Shown: in pieces, positions 46,269 to 58,571 of the stretch
Numbering within the stretch: position 1 is the first letter of the stretch
How the letters are laid out: each line of letters begins with the position of its first letter
Source: an uncultured Gemmataceae bacterium
GTDB lineage: Bacteria; Planctomycetota; Planctomycetia; Gemmatales; Gemmataceae
Assembly (NCBI GenBank): GCA_963750165.1
Contig: CAVVPN010000012.1
Span: forward strand, 1,152,001-1,216,000
Reading direction: 5' to 3'
DNA: 64,000 nt
Position numbers and translations under genes: made by a program
The notes under the pieces: generated by a model
Databases searched by the model: none
Seen by the model: only the letters and a program-made list of their open reading frames with translations
Told to the model about the DNA's origin: nothing

Positions 46269-46381
46269 CTCACGCAAAGGCGCAAAGACGCAAAGAGTCG
46301 CAAAAGGGAATTGAAAAAAGACGACTACCGTGTTCTTGTAATTCGGTATTTCCTTGCGCCTCTTGGCGCCTTTGCGTGAGC
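46269..46381. repeat. Intergenic inverted repeat (cgcaaag-type REP-like)
   Basis: gctcacgcaaaggcgcaaagacgcaaag...cttgcgcctcttggcgcctttgcgtgagc. Confidence 0.6.
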
Positions 46382-46408
46382 TTTCTTCCTTTTCTTCAGA
46401 GACTGCCG

Positions 46409-47993
46409 ATGGACGAACTGCTCGCCGAGCTGCGCCGCCAGGAAGCCAAAATCAAGGAGGGCGGCGGCAAATCCGCCAGCGACCGCCAGCACGCCAAGGG
46501 CCGCCTCACCGCCCGCGAGCGCATCGCCAACTTGCTCGACCCCGGCACGGACCTGTTCGAACTGGGCCTGTGGGCCGCGTGGGGCATGTACCAGGACTGG
46601 GGCGGCGCACCGGCGGCGGGCGTCGTCACCGGCGTCGGCAGTGTCGGCGGCCGCCGCGTCATGGTCATCGCCAACGACGCCACCGTGAAAGCCGGCGCCT
46701 TCTTCCCCATGACCGCCAAGAAGGTGCTCCGCGCCCAGCGCATCGCCCTGGACAACCGCCTGCCGCTCGTCTACCTCGTCGATTCCGCCGGCGTCTTCCT
46801 GCCGCTGCAGGACGAGGTGTTCCCCGATGAGGACGACTTCGGCCGCATCTTCCGCAACAACGCGGTGCTCTCCGCCGCGGGCGTGCCGCAGTTCGCGGCC
46901 ATCCTCGGCAACTGCGTCGCCGGCGGCGGCTACCTGCCGGTGCTGTGCGACCAGCTGCTCATGACCGAGGGCAGCGGCCTGTACCTCGCCGGGCCGGCGC
47001 TGGTCAAGCGCCGCCATCGGTCAGAGCGTCGAGAGTGAGGAACTGGGCGGCGCCAAGATGCACAGCAGCATCAGCGGCACCGTCGATTACCGCGAGCCGG
47101 ACGACCCCGCCTGCCTGACGCGCCTGCGCCGCCTGGTCGAATTGCTGGCCGCCGACGTGCCGCGCGTCGCTTTCGACATCCCGACCGCCCGGCCAGCCGC
47201 GGACCTGCTGCACTACTGCGACCGCGCCGGTCGTCAGGAGTACGATGTGCGCGACGTGCTGGCGTGTCTGCTGGACGCGGCGCCGTTCGACGAGTACAAG
47301 GCCGAATATGGTCAAACGCTGGTGTGCGGCTTCGGCCGGCTGGGCGGCGTGCCGGTCGGCGTCGTGGCCAACCAGCGCCAGCGTTGCAAGCCGGCGGCGG
47401 GGCCGTTGCAGTTCGGCGGCGTCATCTACGTCGATAGCGCCGACAAGGCGGCGCGCTTCATCATGGACTGCAACCAGACACGGGTGCCGCTGCTGTTCCT
47501 GCAGGACGTGAACGGCTTCATGGTCGGCCGCGACTCGGAGCAGGCCGGCATCATCCGCGCCGGCGCCAAGCTGGTGAACGTCATCGCCAACAGCGTGGTG
47601 CCCAAGATCACACTGATCCTGGGCGGCTCGTTCGGCGCCGGCAACTACGCTCTGTGTGGCAAGGCGTTCGACCCGCGTTTCATCCTGGCGTGGCCCACGG
47701 CGAAGTACGCGGTCATGGGTGCGGACCAGGCGGCGGGCACGCTGCTGGACATCACCGTCAGCGCGCTGAAGCGCGGCGGCCACGAGCCGGACGCGGCGGA
47801 GTTGCAGGAGCTGCGCGACAGGGTGACGGCGGCGTACCAGGAGCAGACGGACGTGCGCTACGCGGCGGCGCGGTTGTGGGTCGATGGCGTCGTGGAGCCA
47901 ACCGCCACGCGGCCGGCGCTGCTGACGGCGCTGGCGGTGGCGCTGCGGTACGATGAGGGCCGGCCGTTTCGGACGGGCGTGCTGCAAGTGTAG
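46409..47993 (+). CDS. Acyl-CoA carboxylase carboxyltransferase (MccB/LiuB-like), frameshift near 47010
   Basis: GRLTARERI, ANDATVKAG, GNCVAGGGY, GGSFGAGNYA and YAAARLWVDG motifs. Confidence 0.88.
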
Positions 47994-48164: not shown

Positions 48165-48908
48165 TCACACCTGGGCTGCGGAAGCCGTGCCGGCCGTGAG
48201 GCCGATCTGTTGGGCCGGGAGATGCGCTTGTGCTTCGGGGCTCCCAAGGATGGCCGCCTCCACTTGGGTGTCCGTCATGTCCCCAGACGTCAGATGCTGT
48301 ACCCACAAGGTCACTCCCTTTTCCTCCGGGGAAGGGGCACGGCCCAGGTAGAGGCGATACCACAGCGTCACCCGTTCGAGCGGGGTCATGGAAGCCATAC
48401 CGACTGTGTTGCCGTTCCGTGGGGCCGGGAGAAGCGCTTGTGCTTCCTGGACCTGCACGTCGCGGAAGTGCAATTTCACTTCCCATCCGTTGCTGAGCAG
48501 AATCGACCAGGACCAGATAGGCGGTTCGCCGGGGATCAGTTCCAGTTCATCATACTGCCATTCCACCACGCTGCCTGTGGAACGAAACTGCAGGGGCAAG
48601 TCGGTCGGGTTGATTTTGGGTTCGTTCACCAGGTCGAAGGTAAGCGTCACCAAAGGTTGCGGCGGCGAATCCAGCTGTAACACGATGACAAAGGAATGCC
48701 CCTGTTTGCCCAGGCCCCGAACCTTGGCGTCATGGAGTTGATAACTTTCTTCAATGTGCCTCAAACCCGAGGGCATTTTCCCCTTAATCGAGTCAAAGTA
48801 ATGGCCATAACTATCGCAGGCGCAGTCCCATTCCTCCTGGGCGGCGTTGGCAATGGCATCGTCTTTGGAGCCGAAGCGGACGAGCAGGTCAGGCGTAAAG
48901 TATTTCAT
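48165..48908 (-). CDS. Hypothetical immunity-like protein with C-terminal DUF4214-like segment
   Basis: MKYFTPDL...LHDAKV core; tail YRLYLGRAPS...WVQHL...VEAAILGSPE; lower GC. Confidence 0.5.
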   Translation of the reverse strand: MKYFTPDLLVRFGSKDDAIANAAQEEWDCACDSYGHYFDSIKGKMPSGLRHIEESYQLHDAKVRGLGKQGHSFVIVLQLDSPPQPLVTLTFDLVNEPKINPTDLPLQFRSTGSVVEWQYDELELIPGEPPIWSWSILLSNGWEVKLHFRDVQVQEAQALLPAPRNGNTVGMASMTPLERVTLWYRLYLGRAPSPEEKGVTLWVQHLTSGDMTDTQVEAAILGSPEAQAHLPAQQIGLTAGTASAAQV

Positions 48909-49285
48909 TTTTTCTTCCTCGCCTTGCGCTTGTCGGTTTCGTAAAAGGTGTGCCCGTCCGGTTCCCGCGACTCCTGGTGGTAGTGCGGTAAAGCGTGCGG
49001 CCCGGCGCGCCGCTCGGGCGGCTGCGGCGGTGTGCGCGGCCCGACGGCGGCTTCAATTTGGCCAGCAAGTCGCCGATTCGCGGCCAGATCCTCCCCGCAA
49101 ACCACAACATCTTCGGCAACAATCCGCCGCGCCACCGCGTCCTTGAAGCTGAGTTCCTGGCCCCGCTCCACAAGGCCGGAAGGGCCGGAGACTCTTTCCG
49201 CCGCGTGGATTGTTGGCGAGGGCGTCTTCGGTTGCTCCTGAGACGGCGCTGCTTCGGGGGGCGCTTCGTTTGGCTCGGCAGCCAT
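48905..49285 (-). CDS. Small His-motif toxin-like protein
   Basis: C-terminal PHALPHYHQ...GHTFYE; stop codon overlaps the next start (ATGA). Confidence 0.45.
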   Translation of the reverse strand: MAAEPNEAPPEAAPSQEQPKTPSPTIHAAERVSGPSGLVERGQELSFKDAVARRIVAEDVVVCGEDLAANRRLAGQIEAAVGPRTPPQPPERRAGPHALPHYHQESREPDGHTFYETDKRKARKKK

Positions 49286-49289
49286 TGGT

Positions 49290-49505
49290 TCATCTTACCT
49301 CATCCCTGATGGTTCCCATGATCCCGCGCTGCCGCCGCAGTTCCTCCATGCGCCGCTTGATCTCCGCCTGGTAGCCACGCTCCAACGGCTCATAATACCG
49401 CACGGGACGCTCCGCCGTGGACCGCACGCCCACCTCCAGCGCCGTCAGCGCCCGCCGTGCGTCGCCGTCGCTCAACTGCGCCAGCACGTCCAGCGCCTCC
49501 TCCGT
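49290..49505 (-). pseudogene. rarA: Internally deleted rarA/mgsA remnant
   Basis: EALDVLAQLSDGDARRALTALEVGV (AAA lid) fused in frame at ~49398 to YYEPLERGYQAEIKRRME (RarA C-terminus). Confidence 0.7.
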
Positions 49506-49748
49506 TTCGCAAGGAGGACGGATTCTCGATGATTATCTTACCTGATCCGGCATTCCCTGGGCACTCCTGAAAGCGATTGATTCCCGACACCCAACCGTCT
49601 CGGGAGTGCAACGAAAAAAACCGCAAGGATCAAAGGCCGATTCCTTGCTTGACGAGGCGAGAATGTCGCGCCTACACTCCCTTATGTATCGTGACTGTCC
49701 GTTCTGCGGAAGCGGTTGAACAACGACCCCGGCGCTTGAGGATCTTCC

Positions 49749-50455
49749 ATGGCGAGCGACCACGACCTGAATTCGCTGTCGCGCTTCCGCAAACAGTCCG
49801 GGCGGTTGGTCCTGGAAGAGCACAGCCACTGCGAGATACCGGCCGGCTGCGGCGGCGTTGTGCTGCGCTGGCGCAACCCATTCGCCGCTGTGCCGCTCCG
49901 GCTCCACCTCTACGCGCCAGTCCCCGCCGCCTGCTTCCTCGACGGGGCCGAGGTGCAAAACGGTCGCGTGGACCTCGCTCTCGGACGGCACGCCGTCGCC
50001 CTTGCCCTGGAGGACACGGACCTGTCCGGCGGCCTGATCCTGTTTGCGGCCGTCCACCCCGAGACGCGCTCGGAGCGCAATCCGCCGGCCCTGGTGACCG
50101 ACGCCCCGCTGCGGGTGCTGACGGCCGACGACGGCACCTGGAAATGTACCCTCCAGCGGCCGGAAACCGACGAGTGGAAGACGCCCACCTTCGACGACCG
50201 CGACTGGGTCGTCCTGACGGGGGCGCCGAAGCCGCGGCTCGCCTCCGGCGCCCGGGCGCCTACCAGTGCGACGAGTGTGTCCGCCTGGGGGCCGTCTGCC
50301 TCCGACTACCGGCACCGGCTCCCGCGGCGGAACGGGGCTCGTTGTGGCAGCTGCTGGGGTTGTGGCGAGGCCCGCAGGCGCCCCCGGTGATGGGCAGCGT
50401 CTGGATCCGCAAAGTCTTTGACATCCCACCGCCCCAAACCCGTGCGTCGTCGTGA
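49749..50455 (+). CDS. Hypothetical protein with HSHCEIPAGCGG motif (frameshift near 50250)
   Basis: RBS gagga; coherent N-terminus in ORF 49749..50390; C-terminus (..GSVWIRKVFDI) in the frame ending at 50455. Confidence 0.6.
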
Positions 50456-50492
50456 CGCACGGCTGGGGGCGGATCGACCCAGGACGACCCGC

Positions 50493-51838
50493 ATGACCAC
50501 CTCGCGTAACCCGCTGACCCTGGTCCCGCAGTATTTCGGCTGCCTTGTCTTCGACCGGCGCACGTCGCGCTACCTGCCGTTCGACCACGAGGCGACTGCC
50601 CTGCTGCGCGCGCTCCACGGCCGGCCGATTGACGCCGTCCTCGCCGATTACCCCGGCGAAGACGAGCGCGCCGCGGTCGAACGGTTCTTCGCCTGTTTTT
50701 ACGAGCGCGGCTTCTTTCGCCTGGACGGACGGTTGGCGGCGGACCTCCTCGACGTGGACGTGCCCGCGGACCACCTGGTCGGGCCGCTGGCGGTCCACCT
50801 GGAGGTCGTGGGCGCCTGCAACCTGACCTGCACCCACTGCTTCGCGGGCACGCTGCCGCGCAACCACCAGCCGCTGACCGTCGCCGAGATGGACCGCCTG
50901 TTCGGCGAGCTGGCCCGGCTCGGGTCGTTTCGGCTGGGCCTCACCGGCGGCGAACCGCTGCTGCGCAAGGACCTGGGCGACATCCTCGACGCGGCCACCG
51001 GGCACGGCCTGCACCCCTGCTTGACGACGAACGGCCTGCTGCTCACCGAGGAGATCGCCCGCCAGCTGGGCCGTCGCGACCTCGTCTGGATCAACGTGAG
51101 CCTCGAAGGCCCGGACGCCGAGACGAACGACGCCGTCCGCGGGCCGGGGACGTTCGCGGCCGTGCTGGAGAACCTGAAAGTCCTCCGCCGGCACGCGCGC
51201 TTCACCCTGGCCTTCACGGTCCTGCGCACGAACGCCCACCTCGTCAACCGCTGCGCCGAACTGGCCTATCGCGTCGGCGCCCACACCGCCGTGTTCCGGC
51301 CGCTCTACCCGGCCGGCGTCGCTCTCGAACACCTCGACCTGATGCCGAGTTTCAGCCAGTACAGCCACGCCCTGCACGAACTGGCGGACATGGCGAGCCC
51401 GGGGGCGGACCTGCGCGGCCTCGATCCGTTCGGCCCGGACAGCCGGGCCGCCACGCAGCCGCGCATCCACACCAGCCACACTTGCGGGGCGGGCCAGCAC
51501 GTCTGTTCCGTCTCAGTGCAGGGCGAGGTCAGCCCGTGCAGTTTCCTCGGCCCCGCCTTCCATACCGGCAACGTCCGCGCCACGCCCTTCGCGGTCCTCT
51601 GGCGCACTGGCCAGCAGTTCCGGCGGCTGCGCGAACCGTCGGCGGGCGGCTTCTCGGGCGGCTGCCGGGCGCGGCGCAGGCGCTCGCGGGCTCCGCGGAC
51701 GCGCCCGACCCGTGGTTCGAGGAGTATCTGGCCGGCGCCGCGCCGCACCCCGGGGCCAACGTCGAGGCGGCGGCCGCCTTCCCGCGGGCGCTGCCGGTTC
51801 GGTCCGCCGCGCCGGAGGAGGCGAGCCATGCTCCCTGA
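50493..51838 (+). CDS. Radical SAM/SPASM protein with RRE-like N-terminus (frameshift near 51672)
   Basis: CNLTCTHC, LTGGEPL, TTNG, VSLEG, CGAG...GEVSPCSFL...GNVR and GGCRAR; then ..DAPDPW in the shifted frame. Confidence 0.85.
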
Positions 51839-52957
51839 GAAGTACCGCTGGATCGGCGTGCAGTTCGAGCCGGGAGAGGGCGACCCCGACCTGTTGCTGG
51901 CGGTCGCCGAGGAGCTGGAGGACGAGGGCAACCGGGCGGGGGCCGCGCAGGTGCTCGACCGGGCGTTTGGCATCGCCCCGGCGCACGAGGCGGTGCGACG
52001 GGCGCGGCGCGCGTCCTGGACAGCCTGGCGGTGGTCGAGCACGGCCTGACATTCCGCTACATCCCGGGCGGCGTGTTCCTGATGGGCTGCGACACACGCG
52101 AGCAAGATGAGCGCCCCTGGCACCCGGTATGGCTGGCGCCGTACTGGATGTCGGAGACGCCGGTCAGCTGGGAGGCGTACTGCCGGCTCATGGGCTGGGA
52201 GGCGCCGCCGGGCGGTTATCCGCGGGACCGTGAGCCGGCGCCGGGTGATTTCGACCGCCCGCTCTTTCATCTGTACAACGCGAACAAAATTCGCCTGCAA
52301 TACTGCGAGGACCGTACAACGCAGGCCGGCGACTGGCACGCCCACGCCCCGGGGCAGATGTGGCAGACGGGCGGCCAGACCCAGTCCGCTCAGGAGTTGT
52401 TCGGCACGCCGCCGCGCGACGAGCCCGACGCACCGTGGCGGTACGACACCAAGCCGATGATTGCGGTCGCCTGGCAGGATGTCGAGGACCTGGCCGCCCG
52501 CCTGTCCACCGACCGGGTGCGCTACGGCTGTCCGACCGAGGCGCAGTGGGAGAAGGCCGCCCGCGGCGGCCTGATCGGCGCCCGCTACGCCTGGGGCGAC
52601 GAGCCGCCGACCCCCGACTGCTGCGACTTTGACCACTTCGGCGACTTTTCGATCCGCCCGATGACGACCTTTCCGCCCAACGGCTACGGGCTGTACGCGG
52701 TCAACGGCGGTGTCTGGGAGTGGACGCGCGACTGGTACGACCGCGACTACTACCGGCACTCCCCCGAGGAGGACCCGGAGGGGCAGGAGAAGGGGCAGGA
52801 GAAGGTGTTGCGCGGCGGCTCCTGGGCGGACTGTGCCGACGCGGTCACGGTGACCTTCCGCATGTCGCGCGGCTCCCGCAGCTGGACGGAGGGCGAGTGG
52901 AGCGAGCACCTGGCGCCGAACATTGGTTTCCGGCTGTGCCGGACGGTCGTCGGCTGA
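51828..52957 (+). CDS. FGE-sulfatase (SUMF1/CLec-fold) domain protein with N-terminal TPR-like helix pair (frameshift near 52005)
   Basis: IPGGVFLMG, PTEAQWEKAARGG, PPNGYGLY..GGVWEW, LRGGSW and IGFR motifs; overlaps the rSAM 3' end. Confidence 0.85.
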
Positions 52958-52973
52958 CGGGCGTGGCGGGAGG

Positions 52974-54978
52974 TTACGGGGCGGCCGCGGCGGTCGCCGG
53001 CTCGGCGCTCTTCCAGGACTCGGACGGCGTCACCAGCGGCAGCAGGCCGGCGCACTGGCTGGCCAGAAACGCGCGGGCCGCGGCGGCGCCCGCGCCGGGC
53101 ACCTGCGCCGCCACGGCCTCGTGCCACCCGGCGGCCGCGGCCAGCTGCCAGGCCTGTCCATCGCTCAGACTGCGCAGGCTGGCCCGCGCCGGCCGCAGCT
53201 TGTCCCAGACCTGCTTCGTCAGGGGCGGCAACTCCCGGTGCGCCGGCGCCAGCCACAGCACGATCATGGCGTCCGCCGGACGGGCGGGCTCGGCCAGCGG
53301 CGCAAGCCGGGCTTCCAGTTCCGTGGGCAACGCCCGGCCGGTCGTGAGCAACAGGCCGACGGCCACGCGCGCGGGCCGCCCCAGGGCGCCGTCGTCGGTC
53401 ACCCGCTGCCAGTCCACCGCGGTGACCAGAGCGTAATCGCGGTGCGGATCCTTGGTCACCACCACCTCGGCGCCCGCCAGCCGCCAGCCGTCGCGGGTGA
53501 CCGCCCCGGCCGCCTGCAGCACCTGACACAACCCCTCGTTGAGCTTCCCTCCCAGGCTCGAGAGCCCGACGTTCTGGGCTACCTGCTCCGCCGCGCGCAC
53601 GCGCTCTTGCCAGAGGCGCCGCAGCAGCGTGTCCGGGTCGGTCGCCGTCGCCAGCGCTGGCGGCGCCGACGACGGCACTGGCGGTTTGACCGCCGGCGTC
53701 GGTGCATGCCCGTGGACGATACGGTCGTACTCCTCGCGCAGCCGCTGCAAGCGCGTCCGCAGCGGCACGTCCGCCATCTGCTCGACCGCGGCCAGGTCGG
53801 CGTCCGTGAACGGGAACAGCCGCGGCAGTTGATCGGCCGCCGCAAAGCCCCGCAGTGTCCGCGCGACGCGGTGCTCGACCAGCGTGCGGAGCGCCGCCGG
53901 CGCCGGCGCTCCGAGGTACACGACATCCACCACGCCGTGGCCGGGCACGGACACGCCCTGATCCAGGCGGCTCAGGGCGAACGGGTGCCCCAGCGTGCGC
54001 AGCGCCCGGTACACCTCGCTCTCGGCGAACACCAGGAAGAGCAGGCTGCGCGTCGCGTCCACCGCCTGGGCCAGGCCGTCGAGGAAGGCACGCACGCGCT
54101 CCGGGCTGAGTTCGCCCTGCGGTGCCAGCAGCCCCTCCAGGTTGTCGTAGGCGAAGACGACCGGCAACCGCACCAGGGCGCACACCTCGACCAGGGCGAG
54201 CAGCAGCTGGCGGGCCGCCACGCTGCGGAAGGACGGCCGCGCACCGCCAGGGCCGGCATCGGTTTCCACAAACGTCCCGAGCGGGTCGGCCTCGTCCAGC
54301 AAAGCCGCCCGAACCAGTGCCATCAGCAGCCGCCGGCGCACCACGCCCGCCGCTTCCTTTTCCCAGCGCTGCAGATCATCGGCGATGCGCTCGACCGCCG
54401 CAGCCGGCGTGAGCCCGTGAGTCTGGGCGAGCGCCGCCGGATCCTCGACCGCCGACGGCGCGTCCGGGGCGGATACGCCCAGGACGCGGCGCAGCAGCCG
54501 GGCGGTCAGGTTGGCGGCGATGTCGCGCAATGGCGGCCGGCCGGAAGGCGTGCCCTCGGCGCGAAGGGCCGCGATCAGGTGGCCGACCAGTGCCTCATCA
54601 AGGGGCACTTCCGGTTCAAAAAAGGTGGGCTGGATCAGCAGCTGGAGCGCGTCGTCGCGGTGCGCCAGTGCCTCCAGCAGATGGGTCTTGCCGGCGCCGC
54701 GCGGCCCGACCACGGCGACCACACGGCTGTCGGCCAGGCCGCTGCCGGGGTGATACGCCTTCAGGCGGTACGTCTGCGGCCGATACACGTCCATCGTCGC
54801 GGTGAGTTTCTGGTATTCGGCCTGGTGAATGCTGGGCTCGTGGTGATCGAGGAAGTGCTCGTCGGGCCGCTGCGGCCGCACCAGACCGTCAAACGGGTTG
54901 GGCTGGCCGCGCAGCCAGTCGCGGGCCTGGTCGGTCAGGGCCGGGCCGGGCTGTGCGATGTCAGGGGAGATCGACATA
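52974..54978 (-). CDS. Large P-loop (AAA+/STAND-like) ATPase
   Basis: NPF near the N-terminus, Walker A GPRGAGKT, Walker B VVFAYDNLE, candidate Arg finger LSRL. Confidence 0.75.
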
Positions 54979-55280
54979 AATATCACCTATCTGAAATATA
55001 GTAAAACTGGTATTGTCTGCCACCTGCGCCGTGCCTATCCTCCCCGCGCCCTTATGAAGTTTGTGAAGGCGCCTGCGAACTTGACAACCCTCCCCTGGCA
55101 TTTTACTGTGCAACCAGTGGCCGCGGTGGAGCGTTCTGCCCCGCCGCGGCGGTCCATCCCCCGTCCCCACGGCGCATTGCGCAAGGAACCCAATGCTGTG
55201 CGTGTCCTGCCGGGGACCGCTGCGTAGAATGGTTCACCCGGGCGCAGTCCCGGTAAAGCATACATCGAAGGAGGCATCCC

Positions 55281-56294
55281 ATGTGGTCAGTTGGCGATCG
55301 GGTGTTGGGGAAGCGGCCGGAGGAGCCGTTCTGGTATCCGGGCACGGTCAAACACAGCGACGGCACGCGCTATTTCGTGCTGTTCGACGACGGTGAGGAC
55401 GCGCTGCTGCCGGCGGCGGAGCTGGCGCGGCTGGAGTGGCAGGCGGGCGACCGCGTGTTCGTGCGGGCGGCGACGAGTCGGGCCTACACTGCAGCCACGG
55501 TCAGCGGCAAGGACGGCGATGCGCTGCAGGTGCGCTTCGACGATGGCCGGCAGGAGTGGACCTCGGCGGCGCGGTTGCGCGTCGATCCGGCGGCGCGGCG
55601 GCCGGCGCTGGCGGAGGAGGAAGCGGCGCCGCAGTGGACGCCGGGCGACGCGGTGCTGGCGTGCGGGCCGGATTCGTTCTGGTATCCCGGCGCCGTGCTG
55701 GCGCTGCGCGGCCGTCAGGTGCATGTGGTGCTCGACGACGGCAACCAGTTGCTGGCGGAGCCCGGCCAGTTGCGGAAGCTGACGGTCGAGATCGGCGACG
55801 CGGTGCAGGGACGCTGGCAGGGCGGCCCGGAGTTTTTCCCCGGCGAGGTCACACGGCGGGACGGCCAGGTGGTCCAGATCCGCTACGAAGATGGTGACGA
55901 GGAGGTGACGCTGCTGCGGTTGCTGCGCCTGGACCGCGACGACTGGCTGCCGGGCGAGATGAACTGGTCGGAGGGCGATCGAGTGCTGGGCCAGTGGCTG
56001 GACACCTGCTGGTACCCGGGGGTGGTGCTGGCGGTGAACGGCAAGCGCTTGCAGGTGCTGTTCGACGACGGCGATCAGGCGCTGCTGTCCGCGGCCAAGC
56101 TCAAGCGGCTGAGCGTGCAGGTGGGCGACCGCGTCGCCTGCCGGCGCGGCGGCGGCCAGATTTTCTACCCCGGTGAGGTCGCGGAAAAGCGCGGCGAGAC
56201 CATCCGCGTCCACTACGACGACGGCCAGGAAGAGACGACCACCGTTCGCCTGCTGCGCGTGGAGCCCGAGGGGATGCGCGAAGGGATGGAGTGA
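55281..56294 (+). CDS. Protein of six tandem Tudor/Agenet-like domains
   Basis: RBS aggagg; six ~50-aa units of GDxV..W/FYPGxV....V.F/YDDG. Confidence 0.8.
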   Translation: MWSVGDRVLGKRPEEPFWYPGTVKHSDGTRYFVLFDDGEDALLPAAELARLEWQAGDRVFVRAATSRAYTAATVSGKDGDALQVRFDDGRQEWTSAARLRVDPAARRPALAEEEAAPQWTPGDAVLACGPDSFWYPGAVLALRGRQVHVVLDDGNQLLAEPGQLRKLTVEIGDAVQGRWQGGPEFFPGEVTRRDGQVVQIRYEDGDEEVTLLRLLRLDRDDWLPGEMNWSEGDRVLGQWLDTCWYPGVVLAVNGKRLQVLFDDGDQALLSAAKLKRLSVQVGDRVACRRGGGQIFYPGEVAEKRGETIRVHYDDGQEETTTVRLLRVEPEGMREGME

Positions 56295-56316
56295 CGTTCG
56301 CGGTCGGCCTATCTTG

Positions 56317-56396
56317 CTCCCCTCGCCCCTTCAGGGGGAGAGGGGTCGGGGGTGAGGGGCCCCCAACCCCTCTCCCCCTGAAGGGGCGAGGGGAGT
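56317..56396. repeat. C/G-tract palindromic REP-like element
   Basis: ctcccctcgccccttcagggggagagggg...cccctctccccctgaaggggcgaggggag. Confidence 0.7.
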
Positions 56397-56414
56397 TCAA
56401 TTTCCCGAATCATC

Positions 56415-57770
56415 ATGAACCTGTGTCTGCCCGAGCTGGCGCTGGTGCTGCTGGTCGGCCCGTCGGGGTCCGGCAAGTCCACGTTCGCGCGCCGTCACTT
56501 CAAGCCGACCGAGGTGATGTCCTCCGACTTCTTCCGGGGCCTGGTGCGCGACGACGAGAACGACCAGTCCGCCAGCCGTGACGCCTTCGACGCGCTGCAC
56601 CTGGTGGCGGCGCGACGGCTGGCGGCCGGCCGGCTCACCGTCATCGACGCCACCAACCTCCAGGCTGAGGGTCGCAAGCCGCTGCTGATCCTGGCCAACA
56701 AATATCATGTGCCGCCGGTCGCTGTCGTCTTCGCCCTGGAGGAGGACGTTTGTCAGCGGCACAACCAGCAGCGTGCCGAGCGCGTTGTGCCGGTCACGGT
56801 GGTCAGCAACCACTGGCAACAACTGCAAACCGCCCTCGCCGCCCTGGGACGCGAACACTTCCAGCACGTCTACGTGTTACGCAGCCTCGAAGAGGTGGCC
56901 GCGGCCCGGGTCGAACGGCTGCCGCTGCCGGTGGATCGCCGCGCCGAGCACGGGCCTTTCGACGTGATCGGCGATGTGCACGGCTGCTTCGACGAACTGA
57001 TGCTGCTGTTGCAAAAGCTCGGCTACGAGGTGCATCCGCGGGAGCCGCCGCCGGACGGGGCTGGCTTCGCGGTGCGTGGGCCGGAGGGGCGCAAGGTGGT
57101 GTTCGTCGGCGATCTGGTGGACCGCGGCCCGCGGACGCCGGCGGCGCTGCGGCTGGTGATGAGCATGGCCCGCACCGGCCTGGCGCTGAGCGTGCGCGGC
57201 AACCACGACGACAAGCTGCTGCGCAAGCTGCAAGGCCGCGACGTAAGGTTGACGCACGGCCTGGCCGAGTCGCTGGAGCAACTGGGTCGGGAGCCGCCGG
57301 GCTTCCTGGACCGCGTCCGCGACTTTCTGGAGATGCTACCGAGCCATTACGTGCTGGACGGCGGCAAGCTGGTGGTGGCGCACGCGGGCATCAAGGAGGA
57401 GATGCAGGGCCGGATGTCGGAGCGAGTGCGTGTGTTCGCGCTGTTCGGCGACACGACCGGCGAGATGGCTGCGGACGGGCTGCCGGTGCGGCGCAACTGG
57501 GCGGCGGACTACCACGGCCGGGCGCTGGTGGTCTACGGTCACACGCCGGTGCTGGAGCCGATCCGCGTGCAGCGCACCGTCAATATCGACACCGGCTGCG
57601 TCTTCGGCGGCCAGCTGACCGCCCTGCGCTACCCGGAAATGGAGCCGGTGTCAGTGCCGGCGGCGCGGCAGTACTGCGCGCCGCACCGCCAGCTGCTGAC
57701 GAGTCTGGACGTGCCGACGCCGCTGCGCATCGGCTGGCGCCGGCCGGAGCGGATGCCGCCGGGGGCGTGA
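56415..57770 (+). CDS. Polynucleotide kinase-phosphatase (Pnkp) lacking the C-terminal ligase domain
   Basis: GPSGSGKST and DATN kinase motifs; GDVHG, GDLVDRG, GNHD, YGHTP and IDTGCVFGG phosphoesterase motifs; only 451 aa. Confidence 0.88.
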   Translation: MNLCLPELALVLLVGPSGSGKSTFARRHFKPTEVMSSDFFRGLVRDDENDQSASRDAFDALHLVAARRLAAGRLTVIDATNLQAEGRKPLLILANKYHVPPVAVVFALEEDVCQRHNQQRAERVVPVTVVSNHWQQLQTALAALGREHFQHVYVLRSLEEVAAARVERLPLPVDRRAEHGPFDVIGDVHGCFDELMLLLQKLGYEVHPREPPPDGAGFAVRGPEGRKVVFVGDLVDRGPRTPAALRLVMSMARTGLALSVRGNHDDKLLRKLQGRDVRLTHGLAESLEQLGREPPGFLDRVRDFLEMLPSHYVLDGGKLVVAHAGIKEEMQGRMSERVRVFALFGDTTGEMAADGLPVRRNWAADYHGRALVVYGHTPVLEPIRVQRTVNIDTGCVFGGQLTALRYPEMEPVSVPAARQYCAPHRQLLTSLDVPTPLRIGWRRPERMPPGA

Positions 57771-57824: not shown

Positions 57825-58571
57825 ATGCCAATCCATGATTGGACGCGCGTGAGCGCCGGTACGTGGCATGCGTTTCACCTGAGTTGGATTGTTGAGATTC
57901 AACTCGCGCTCAACGACGGGCTGTTGCCGGCGGATTACTACGCCCAGGCCGAACAAATCGCCGGGCCGCTCGGGCCGGATGTGCTCACCCTTCAGGAGTC
58001 GAACGGGACTCCGAACGAACCGGTCGCGCAACCTTCCGGTGGCGGCATTGCGGTCGCCACCGCCCCGCCGCGAATGCGGGTCGCCGCCGAAGCCGAGATG
58101 AACGACTATGTCCTGAAGCGCCGTACGTTGGTGATCCGTCACACCAGCGGCGACCGCATCGTCGCCTTGCTGGAGATCGTCTCGCCGGGGAACAAGTCGG
58201 CACGCCACGCCATCCGCGCGTTCGTCGAGAAGGCGGTGGAAGCGCTGTACCGCGGCTATCACCTGCTCATCGTGGACCTGTTCCCGCCCGGCCCGCGCGA
58301 CCCCAACGGCATTCACGCCCGAATCTGGGGCGAGATCAGCGACGCCCCCTTCGAGCTGCCGCCGGACGAGCCGCTCACCCTGGCCGCGTACTCCGCCGGG
58401 CCGGTCAAGCGGGCTTACGTCGAGCCAACCGCCGTCAGCCGGGAACTGATCGACATGCCGCTGTTCCTCGACCCCGAGACCTACGTCAACGTGCCGCTGG
58501 AGGCGACCTACCAGGCCGCGTACCGCGGTGTGCCGCGCCGCTGGCGTGAAGTGCTGGAAGTGATCTCGTAG
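57825..58571 (+). CDS. DUF4058 family protein
   Basis: MPIHDWTRVSAGTWHAFH, EIVSPGNK and HLLIVDLFPP motifs. Confidence 0.8.
   Translation: MPIHDWTRVSAGTWHAFHLSWIVEIQLALNDGLLPADYYAQAEQIAGPLGPDVLTLQESNGTPNEPVAQPSGGGIAVATAPPRMRVAAEAEMNDYVLKRRTLVIRHTSGDRIVALLEIVSPGNKSARHAIRAFVEKAVEALYRGYHLLIVDLFPPGPRDPNGIHARIWGEISDAPFELPPDEPLTLAAYSAGPVKRAYVEPTAVSRELIDMPLFLDPETYVNVPLEATYQAAYRGVPRRWREVLEVIS

Follow-up and report, generated by a model that had tools for sequence, protein, structure and literature searches.

The 64,000-nt window analysed here (positions 1,152,001 to 1,216,000 of contig CAVVPN010000012.1, assembly GCA_963750165.1) belongs to an uncultured Gemmataceae bacterium whose genome assembly (G000; 9.6 Mb, 93% complete, 12 contigs) is called the source genome below. 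A 9.6-kb part of the window holds nine genes or gene remnants (Table 1). Three of these, at 49749-52957, form a cassette that encodes a Cys-containing protein (X), a radical S-adenosylmethionine (rSAM) enzyme and a protein that combines tetratricopeptide repeats (TPR) with a fold related to the formylglycine-generating enzyme (FGE). The original prediction, made from the sequence of the window, read all nine as one defence island for sensing, modification and RNA repair, while the comparison with other genomes shows that the functional unit is the three-gene cassette X-rSAM-TPR/FGE-like. The GC content is 58% at 48-49 kb and 69-76% across 50-58 kb, and no tRNA gene was found within the window.

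Table 1. Features of the 9.6-kb stretch (window coordinates) and examples of cassettes flanked by EAD7 genes in other genomes
Feature	Position	Strand	Description
Gene X	49749..50455	+	N-terminal Cys loop segment of ~43 aa, then CBM67-like jelly roll; predicted substrate
rSAM	50493..51838	+	Radical SAM enzyme with RRE (RiPP recognition element), CX3CX2C, reduced SPASM domain
TPR-FGE-like	51828..52957	+	TPR and FGE-sulfatase (C-type-lectin) fold; 11-nt overlap with the rSAM stop
Pair gene 1	48905..49285	-	Bystander; small His-motif protein of a multi-copy coupled pair; putatively toxin-like
Pair gene 2	48165..48908	-	Bystander; DUF4085-like; putatively immunity- or antitoxin-like
rarA remnant	49293..49532	-	Bystander; ATPase domain gone; ~200-codon internal deletion
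P-loop ATPase	52974..54986	-	Bystander; 670 aa; Walker A and B
Six-Tudor-repeat protein	55281..56294	+	Bystander; 337 aa
Pnkp	56415..57770	+	Bystander; kinase-phosphatase without ligase
EAD7-flanked examples	L037:8245-15932, L076:8897-15410, L123:2166-3092, L119:299-640

The X alignment was built from 40 of 374 homologues, and X loci were taken as the best 80 of 112 in genomes and the best 80 of 162 in metagenomes. An rSAM gene follows X in 132 of the 137 loci with enough downstream DNA, and all three cassette genes are present in 93 of the 98 loci that extend far enough to hold them. The X and rSAM genes share a 4-nt stop/start overlap in 41 of 77 cases, and the commonest gap between the rSAM and FGE-like genes is -4 nt (25 loci); the gene order is sometimes swapped (L039, L042, L071, L075) or divergent (L049). 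A presence test that was not anchored on X, with cut-offs of E<=1e-60 for rSAM and E<=1e-55 for the FGE-like gene, was run on the same 150 family genomes. Strong X matches occur in 12 of them (15 more have weak partial matches only), the rSAM gene in exactly these 12, and the FGE-like gene in 11 of the 12 and in none of the other 138. In the twelfth, apparently Zavarzinella formosa (L021), an FGE-like gene is present at 42% identity. The TPR piece of the window protein matches 26 X loci.

Beyond these three genes, clustering of 3836 flanking open reading frames (ORFs) gave no fourth partner across lineages, and no conserved short precursor of 20-110 aa was found across lineages among 2902 short ORFs. 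There is likewise no conserved protease or transporter in the cassette neighbourhood and no reverse transcriptase among the recurring neighbours. The nearest neighbours are mostly unrelated ordinary genes (114 genes at 61 of the 80 genome loci, with ORFs chosen heuristically and 18 near-duplicate loci skipped). Directly downstream of the cassette, on the opposite strand, two Virgisporangium genomes of one lineage carry an RtcB RNA ligase gene (L033:12812-13963 and L034:12856-14013).

The hosts carry at least eight phylum-level labels: Planctomycetota, Actinomycetota, Myxococcota, Acidobacteriota, Chloroflexota, Armatimonadota, Methylomirabilota and Eisenbacteria. A quick, bootstrap-free tree of the rSAM enzymes intermixes these phyla, which suggests that the cassette may have spread by transfer between them. 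In Myxococcus xanthus DK1622 it corresponds to MXAN_3457-3455, and in the PMC6791715 supplement the three genes have comparable transcript levels (35-90 reads per kilobase per million); developmental regulation is unsupported there, the relevant rows being flagged as failing. The PMC11980068 supplements gave no rows for the cassette genes. A search of viral_contigs with one pattern gave no phage-borne X, and the only X-rSAM fusion seen when 8000 long candidates were scored is an ORF that resembles a frameshift artefact.

The second gene encodes an rSAM enzyme (PF04055, E 7e-25) that keeps CX3CX2C in all 86 homologues compared. The four Cys of a first auxiliary cluster are kept in 86, 66, 85 and 80 of the 86, while those of the second cluster are lost. 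The full two-cluster SPASM motif is lacking, CX2CX5C occurring in 2 of 86 and the last Cys being replaced, with DPW in 84 of 86; judged by residue counts, a single, twitch-like auxiliary cluster is predicted. In the AlphaFold2 (AF2) model, residues 7-69 form three strands and then three helices, and the predicted local distance difference test score (pLDDT) is 85-98 over residues 1-90. An alignment of the rSAM profile with SkfB starts at position 10, CteB, SuiB and SkfB fill the first nine Foldseek rows, and the Pfam PqqD model gives no match on the enzyme. From these models we take the protein to be a maturase of the type that carries a RiPP (a peptide made by ribosomes and modified after translation) recognition element, with a predicted RRE fold. 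It falls far under every NCBIfam cut-off (78 of 625 bits with the StsB model, 157 of 265 with MftC). Its catalytic-site residues are F-T-T-S-S-F, compared with F-F-T-S-H-Q in CteB and Y-T-I-S-K-L in StsB, and because position 5 matches neither, a chemistry other than thioether formation is possible.

Protein X is 200-240 aa long and belongs to a family of 287 clusters at 50% identity (E<=1e-30). In its AF2 model (pLDDT 84), residues 44-176 form a jelly roll, which superposes on the CBM67 region (166-298) of the rhamnosidase 3w5n with Z 7.4 and a root-mean-square deviation of 3.0 over 113 aligned residues. Ranks 1-5 of the fold comparison are GH78 rhamnosidases and the POL lectin (Z 7.4-6.2), and rank 6 has Z 4.5. 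A sequence match to 3w5m (E 1e-5), a Foldseek probability of 0.95 to the POL lectin and an Atlas language-model value of 0.94 to a Bac_rhamnosid-like_N cluster point the same way; Foldseek gave no match at E<=0.001, and its virus-envelope rows are noise. X is thus modelled as a CBM67-like jelly roll, with sugar binding predicted from the fold. In four variants of 363-381 aa (P0198, P0213, P0227, P0231), one N-terminal Cys loop is combined with two tandem jelly rolls.

The first 43 residues of X lie outside the CBM67 match. They hold a leader-like L-N-S-L-x-R-(F/Y)-x-K and then L-E-x-x-x-x-C-E-V-P-A-G-C-G-G at a predicted hairpin tip, so placed that the loop lies 24-38 residues from the start, behind the conserved leader-like stretch. 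Of 149 representatives taken at 50% clustering, 148 have the motif residues C, E, P, G, C, G and G, and 140 have the full E-x4-CE.PAGCGG, the near-invariant form being E-x4-C-E-(V/I)-P-A-G-C-G-G; this count is less biased than one over loci that were found with that very motif. As to the Cys and potential acceptor residues, 148 of 149 representatives keep C28, E29, G33, C34, G35 and G36, and 141 of 148 keep E23, so that the loop is near-invariant against a mean column identity of 34%. As a rule, the three cassette proteins are free of signal-like and membrane-like segments.

The two proteins were modelled together using the L006 pair, with clusters and SAM included, and the complex scored 0.68, whereas the best of three controls scored 0.00. 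A score this high is reached by 116 of 157 solved and by 2 of 215 mismatched pairs, a calibration that is rough here because of our own alignments and ligands. At least 58% of the contacts agree between runs, and the partner pLDDT is at least 77. On the enzyme side the interface comprises the RRE and residues near the auxiliary Cys (330-331, 336, 348, 350, 390), and on the X side residues 5-14, 33-43 and 165-175. The model supports binding of the rSAM enzyme to the adjacent Cys-containing protein; catalysis is not implied.

The third protein, with its TPR and FGE-sulfatase (C-type-lectin) fold, lacks the FGE catalytic pair CxxxxC in all 87 FGE-like proteins compared. It has a family-specific insert, RLQYCE...WHxH, with one Cys and two His (YCE in 73 and WHxH in 66 of 87). 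Most simply, it would be a reader or a second-step enzyme. The presence of both folds in one operon recalls anSME and FGE/SUMF1, but a sulfatase maturase was rejected: X has C-x-x-P instead of CxPxR, the FGE Cys pair is missing throughout, and no sulfatase gene is a conserved neighbour.

We propose that the rSAM enzyme would grip X through its N-terminal RRE domain, that cleavage of SAM would give a 5'-deoxyadenosyl radical able to abstract hydrogen in the X loop, and that a Cys sulfur would then close a thioether ring there. The ring could follow one of two patterns: two tandem Glu-x4-Cys pairs (E23-C28 and E29-C34) of the ranthionine type, comparable to the Cys-Glu link of QhpC, or Cys28-x4-Gly33 of the sactionine type, spaced as in the inner ring of StsA and BlaA. 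Once modified, X would remain cytoplasmic, a lectin-fold protein with its loop locked, and the TPR-FGE-like partner may bind it or process it further. X is the likely substrate, as QhpC is for QhpD and CrpA for CrpC, because the enzyme is of the RRE type, no short precursor is found, and the protein encoded by the coupled upstream gene has a near-invariant Cys loop preceded by a leader. Modification of this loop, most likely to a thioether, is on balance somewhat probable.

Several observations weigh against this reading. In 20 of the 86 rSAM homologues, Ala replaces the second auxiliary Cys. X stands alone in three of the 98 loci with enough downstream DNA and the FGE-like gene is missing in two (in one exception, L005, the genome G392 has the other two cassette genes on separate contigs). 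The best fold match of X stays below Z 8. In the predicted complex, it is the C-terminal helix of X (165-175) that makes the sharpest contacts with the RRE helices; the confident interface residues include neither C28 nor E29, and the score could be raised by RRE-rSAM/peptide complexes that are already solved. All three cassette genes of the window are, moreover, frameshifted as assembled.

Another reading, which we hold to be possible but rather unlikely, is that X is an unmodified partner whose loop binds a metal or an Fe-S cluster, or which presents a glycan or small molecule, with this ligand, or else the conserved Cys in the FGE-like protein, as the target of the enzyme. H25, H27, C28, E29 and C34 would make a plausible metal site, yet H25 and H27 vary (Y, S) whereas the Glu and Gly are invariant. 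The best predicted contacts use the folded body of X, although the loop lies behind the conserved leader-like stretch and both segments are within the predicted interface. The enzyme has no His or Lys beside the auxiliary Cys, unlike CteB and StsB, its closest NCBIfam models (MftC and AhbD) are decarboxylases, and the insert of the FGE-like protein is itself conserved; against this, the near-invariance of residues in the RRE implies that the substrate is a peptide, as is established for RRE enzymes as a class.

Likenesses to known systems bear on the preferred reading of X as substrate. According to PMC13692751, QhpD binds the leader with an RRE and forms Cys-Glu/Asp thioethers, and in Methanococcus voltae the rSAM/SPASM enzyme CrpC lies beside its Cys-containing protein substrate CrpA. 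Both QhpD/QhpC, of quinohemoprotein amine dehydrogenase maturation, and CrpC/CrpA thus share with the cassette an rSAM/SPASM enzyme that adjoins a Cys-containing protein. CrpC has two auxiliary clusters, compared with the one predicted here; the cassette has neither dehydrogenase subunits nor a conserved protease; and it differs further in its putative substrate of 200-240 aa, with a CBM67-like fold and two loop Cys, and in its TPR-FGE-like partner. With CteB, SkfB and StsB/BlaB, the MftC-related RRE sacti- and ranthisynthases, the enzyme has in common the layout of RRE, barrel and auxiliary cluster. In PMC10288494, StsB forms Cys-Gly rings in StsA, with a like spacing in the BlaA inner ring, and the Cys-x4-Gly of X has this same spacing. 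The cassette enzyme differs from these in falling under the family cut-offs and in its catalytic-site residues, and the cassette differs from sacti- and ranthipeptide clusters in having no short precursor and a Cys motif fused to a folded domain. Six UniProt ids of the cassette rSAM family are absent from the table of ~14,550 RRE-rSAM proteins in PMC10288494. No published description of the cassette was found in the texts available to us, including parts of PMC12710340 and bioRxiv 10.64898/2026.10.19.760177, subscription papers and RadicalSAM.org groups being outside the search. The cassette is probably an undescribed protein-modification system in which an RRE-rSAM enzyme acts on a lectin-fold substrate.

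The frameshifts of the window copy, which the original prediction did not mention, lie at 50252 in X, at 51674 in the rSAM gene and at ~52007 in the TPR-FGE-like gene when compared with the intact homologue L085. One break in each of the three genes could mean a decaying pseudo-operon with real frameshifts, and two scorable breaks in ~1050 aa stand against ~0.4 expected from the background of the source genome, where 5 of 40 ordinary genes (taken from 297 query ORFs of relatives) have 6 breaks in 15,736 aa; the rate in the operon is a few-fold higher. The breaks nevertheless fall in GC-only runs of a stretch with 72% GC, no in-frame stop interrupts the genes, every family motif is retained (GGCRAR runs into the rSAM break), and identity to L085 is 58-81% either side of the X break and ahead of the rSAM break. 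Other genes of the assembly are also split. We therefore consider decay improbable and the three frameshifts likely assembly errors; the family-level result is unaffected either way. Split genes of this kind, in keeping with an assembly prone to indels, are seen at window 46376-47993 and at C3:2620440-2622261 of the source genome, which we take to be carboxyltransferase-like and ABC-F-like, respectively.

A clue to purpose comes from EAD7 genes, which flank the cassette in 9 of the 160 loci, on both sides in seven and only upstream in two (Table 1). In six Streptomyces the order is EAD1-trypsin, EAD1-EAD7, cassette, EAD7-STAND, and in a Nonomuraea it is caspase-EAD7, cassette, EAD7-STAND; L123 has trypsin-EAD7 and L119 EAD7 upstream. 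The cassette-flanking domains are the sole EAD7 domains found in G451 and G452, and 350 other genomes of that class yielded no EAD7 above the cut-off. In the quick tree, the enzymes of Streptomyces branch apart from that of Nonomuraea. In some actinomycetes and one metagenome lineage, the cassette has become part of EAD7-coupled protease/STAND operons, hinting at a role in sensing or conflict as its leading, still unproven, purpose.

It is possible, though we would not rate it as likely, that the cassette is the constant core of a conflict (counter-invader) system in which EAD7 adaptors recruit proteases and a STAND NTPase, the protease cuts X and the lectin folds sense the invader. Besides the paired arrangement of EAD7-protease upstream and EAD7-STAND-repeat downstream in seven actinomycetes with two separate groups of enzymes, the single EAD7 genes of L123 and L119, and the confinement of EAD7 to the cassette flanks in G451 and G452, this view draws on published systems. 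In Kaur et al. 2020 and 2021 (PMC7159879, PMC8195603), EAD-coupled conflict systems and the FxSxx peptide-processing module of VMAP systems have paired EADs on a protease and a STAND/AP-ATPase around a constant core, rSAM/SPASM peptide modules with AP-ATPase-TPR proteins, and FGS/lectin folds, and are patchy in actinomycetes, myxobacteria and planctomycetes. The cassette core of X, rSAM and FGE-like protein differs from theirs, with no MoxR/vWA, zincin peptidase or FxSxx peptide, and it was not found in the searched text and supplements of these two papers. Counting against a conflict role, 151 of the 160 loci lack EAD7, no EAD7 was found in the source genome, and six of the nine flanked loci come from one Streptomyces clade, which also tells against our wider interpretation. 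Most of the 114 neighbours are ordinary genes, the FGE-like protein shows conservation and no reverse transcriptase recurs in the neighbourhood, and the PADLOC check proposed in the original prediction returned generic rSAM matches only, on which ground a Viperin-like or other PADLOC system was also rejected. The cassette may merely have inserted into such operons, yet the same slot twice is hard to obtain by chance. At a more speculative level, an intracellular immune or signalling module of multicellular-type bacteria may be imagined, with a cross-linked lectin-fold sensor loop, a C-type-lectin reader and a switch of EAD7-caspase/trypsin and STAND.

As to the rest of the 9.6 kb, every part that the original prediction listed (the gene pair, rarA scar, three-gene operon, ATPase, Tudor gene and Pnkp) is confirmed in the sequence, including the absence of the Pnkp ligase domain, which shows as a match to TIGR04075 positions 1-426 of 851 only, and the six Tudor repeats, of which a simple motif detects five and the sixth was read by eye. 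What fails is the joining of these parts into one system. The ATPase, Tudor, Pnkp and both pair genes are found at none of the 160 X loci, and rarA likewise at none, although 66 of these loci are at least 15 kb long. Conversely, the cassette is missing from all 77 non-self ATPase, Tudor, Pnkp and pair loci and from 19 wider regions around ATPase and Tudor genes; it occurs in none of 9 genomes with a close six-Tudor homologue and in one of 8 with a close ATPase homologue, there on a different contig. In favour of a single sensing, modification and RNA-repair island, the genes are contiguous in the window, Tudor and short Pnkp genes are neighbours in one other genome (G312), and Pnkp occurs somewhere in 9 of the 12 cassette genomes versus 77 of 150 overall. 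The ATPase, however, normally has partners of its own, and Hen1 was not found in the source genome. Because the parts never co-occur with the operon across independent genomes, we reject the island as a unit and regard its existence as highly improbable; the genes of the 9.6-kb stretch have been inherited separately and lie together by chance. The rSAM-FGE operon within it does stand as an unnamed conserved unit across Planctomycetota, Myxococcota and Actinomycetota, and the proposed conflict role keeps some support for this operon, through the EAD7 flanks in other genomes, but none for the island as a whole.

The bystander genes have distributions of their own. The ATPase family is present in 145 of 151 family genomes, mostly with 2-3 matches each, which makes the statement that the stretch holds no housekeeping genes doubtful. 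The close homologues viewed (L238, L241, L242) lie between two other unannotated conserved genes, both missing in the window. The family lies downstream of an unannotated gene of 230-280 aa without a Pfam match, as also at C3:1457237-1461066 of the source genome, and in the close homologues a second conserved gene follows it. This has the look of a core system of the whole lineage that is still uncharacterised.

Tudor-repeat genes occur in 40 of 151 family genomes, some as stand-alone multi-Tudor genes in tandem (G322:C313), and Pnkp in 78 of 151. About 27 Pnkp matches lie in open frames of 430-535 aa, and the ligase-less form is therefore common. A Tudor gene adjoins Pnkp at one of 19 Tudor loci (L225, G312:C295); in G312 the six-Tudor gene directly precedes a ligase-less Pnkp, and a long Pnkp lies elsewhere. 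The window Pnkp resembles that of bacterial Pnkp/Hen1 RNA repair in its kinase and phosphatase domains, with 59-65% identity to family Pnkp proteins, but it lacks the ligase domain, is unlinked to the cassette, and in the source genome the best Hen1 match (TIGR04074) reaches 32 bits against a cut-off of 340, leaving an RNA-repair defence module unsupported. Next to it, at window 57825-58571, is a DUF4058 gene with 23 tblastn matches in the source genome, another copy of which precedes a Tudor paralogue at C3:2618665-2620211.

The small gene pair overlaps by 4 nt and has 61% GC, against ~66% for the genome. As a module it recurs in 40 of 151 family genomes, in several copies (up to 8 matches per genome) and with no Pfam family; the two genes are adjacent in 19 of 19 loci, and the cassette is near none of them. 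Pair gene 1 has the motifs LPH..Q and GH.FYE; pair gene 2 has weak DUF4085/DUF4214 matches under the cut-offs and, in the window, an extra DUF4214-like tail. We consider the pair a candidate new toxin-antitoxin or toxin-immunity family, in which the roles of the two genes are putative. Besides other pair loci (L266-L284), the source genome has a second copy at C11:1325036-1325834. At 4 kb from it, at C11:1329547-1331826, lies a STAND-like ATPase without EAD7 that by eye resembles the EAD7-STAND proteins of L037 and L076. The rarA remnant is an 80-codon frame (AAA_assoc_2, E 5e-8) whose two halves are ~600 nt apart in the intact genes of relatives, and has therefore suffered an internal deletion; it is matched in 28 of 40 family genomes. 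A search with MgsA_C found no other rarA in the source genome, where the remnant is the sole trace and the gene appears to have been lost.

We know of few validated examples, QhpD and CrpC, of rSAM enzymes that modify folded proteins and not short peptides. The X/rSAM family would escape RiPP mining based on short precursors. Because a candidate substrate is defined, two ring patterns are proposed and M. xanthus expresses a copy, its chemistry is directly testable, and the EAD7 flanks offer a route into the role of peptide- and protein-modifying modules in bacterial conflict systems. If the immune or signalling module outlined above is real, it would mean that a folded protein receives a RiPP-style modification in the service of defence.

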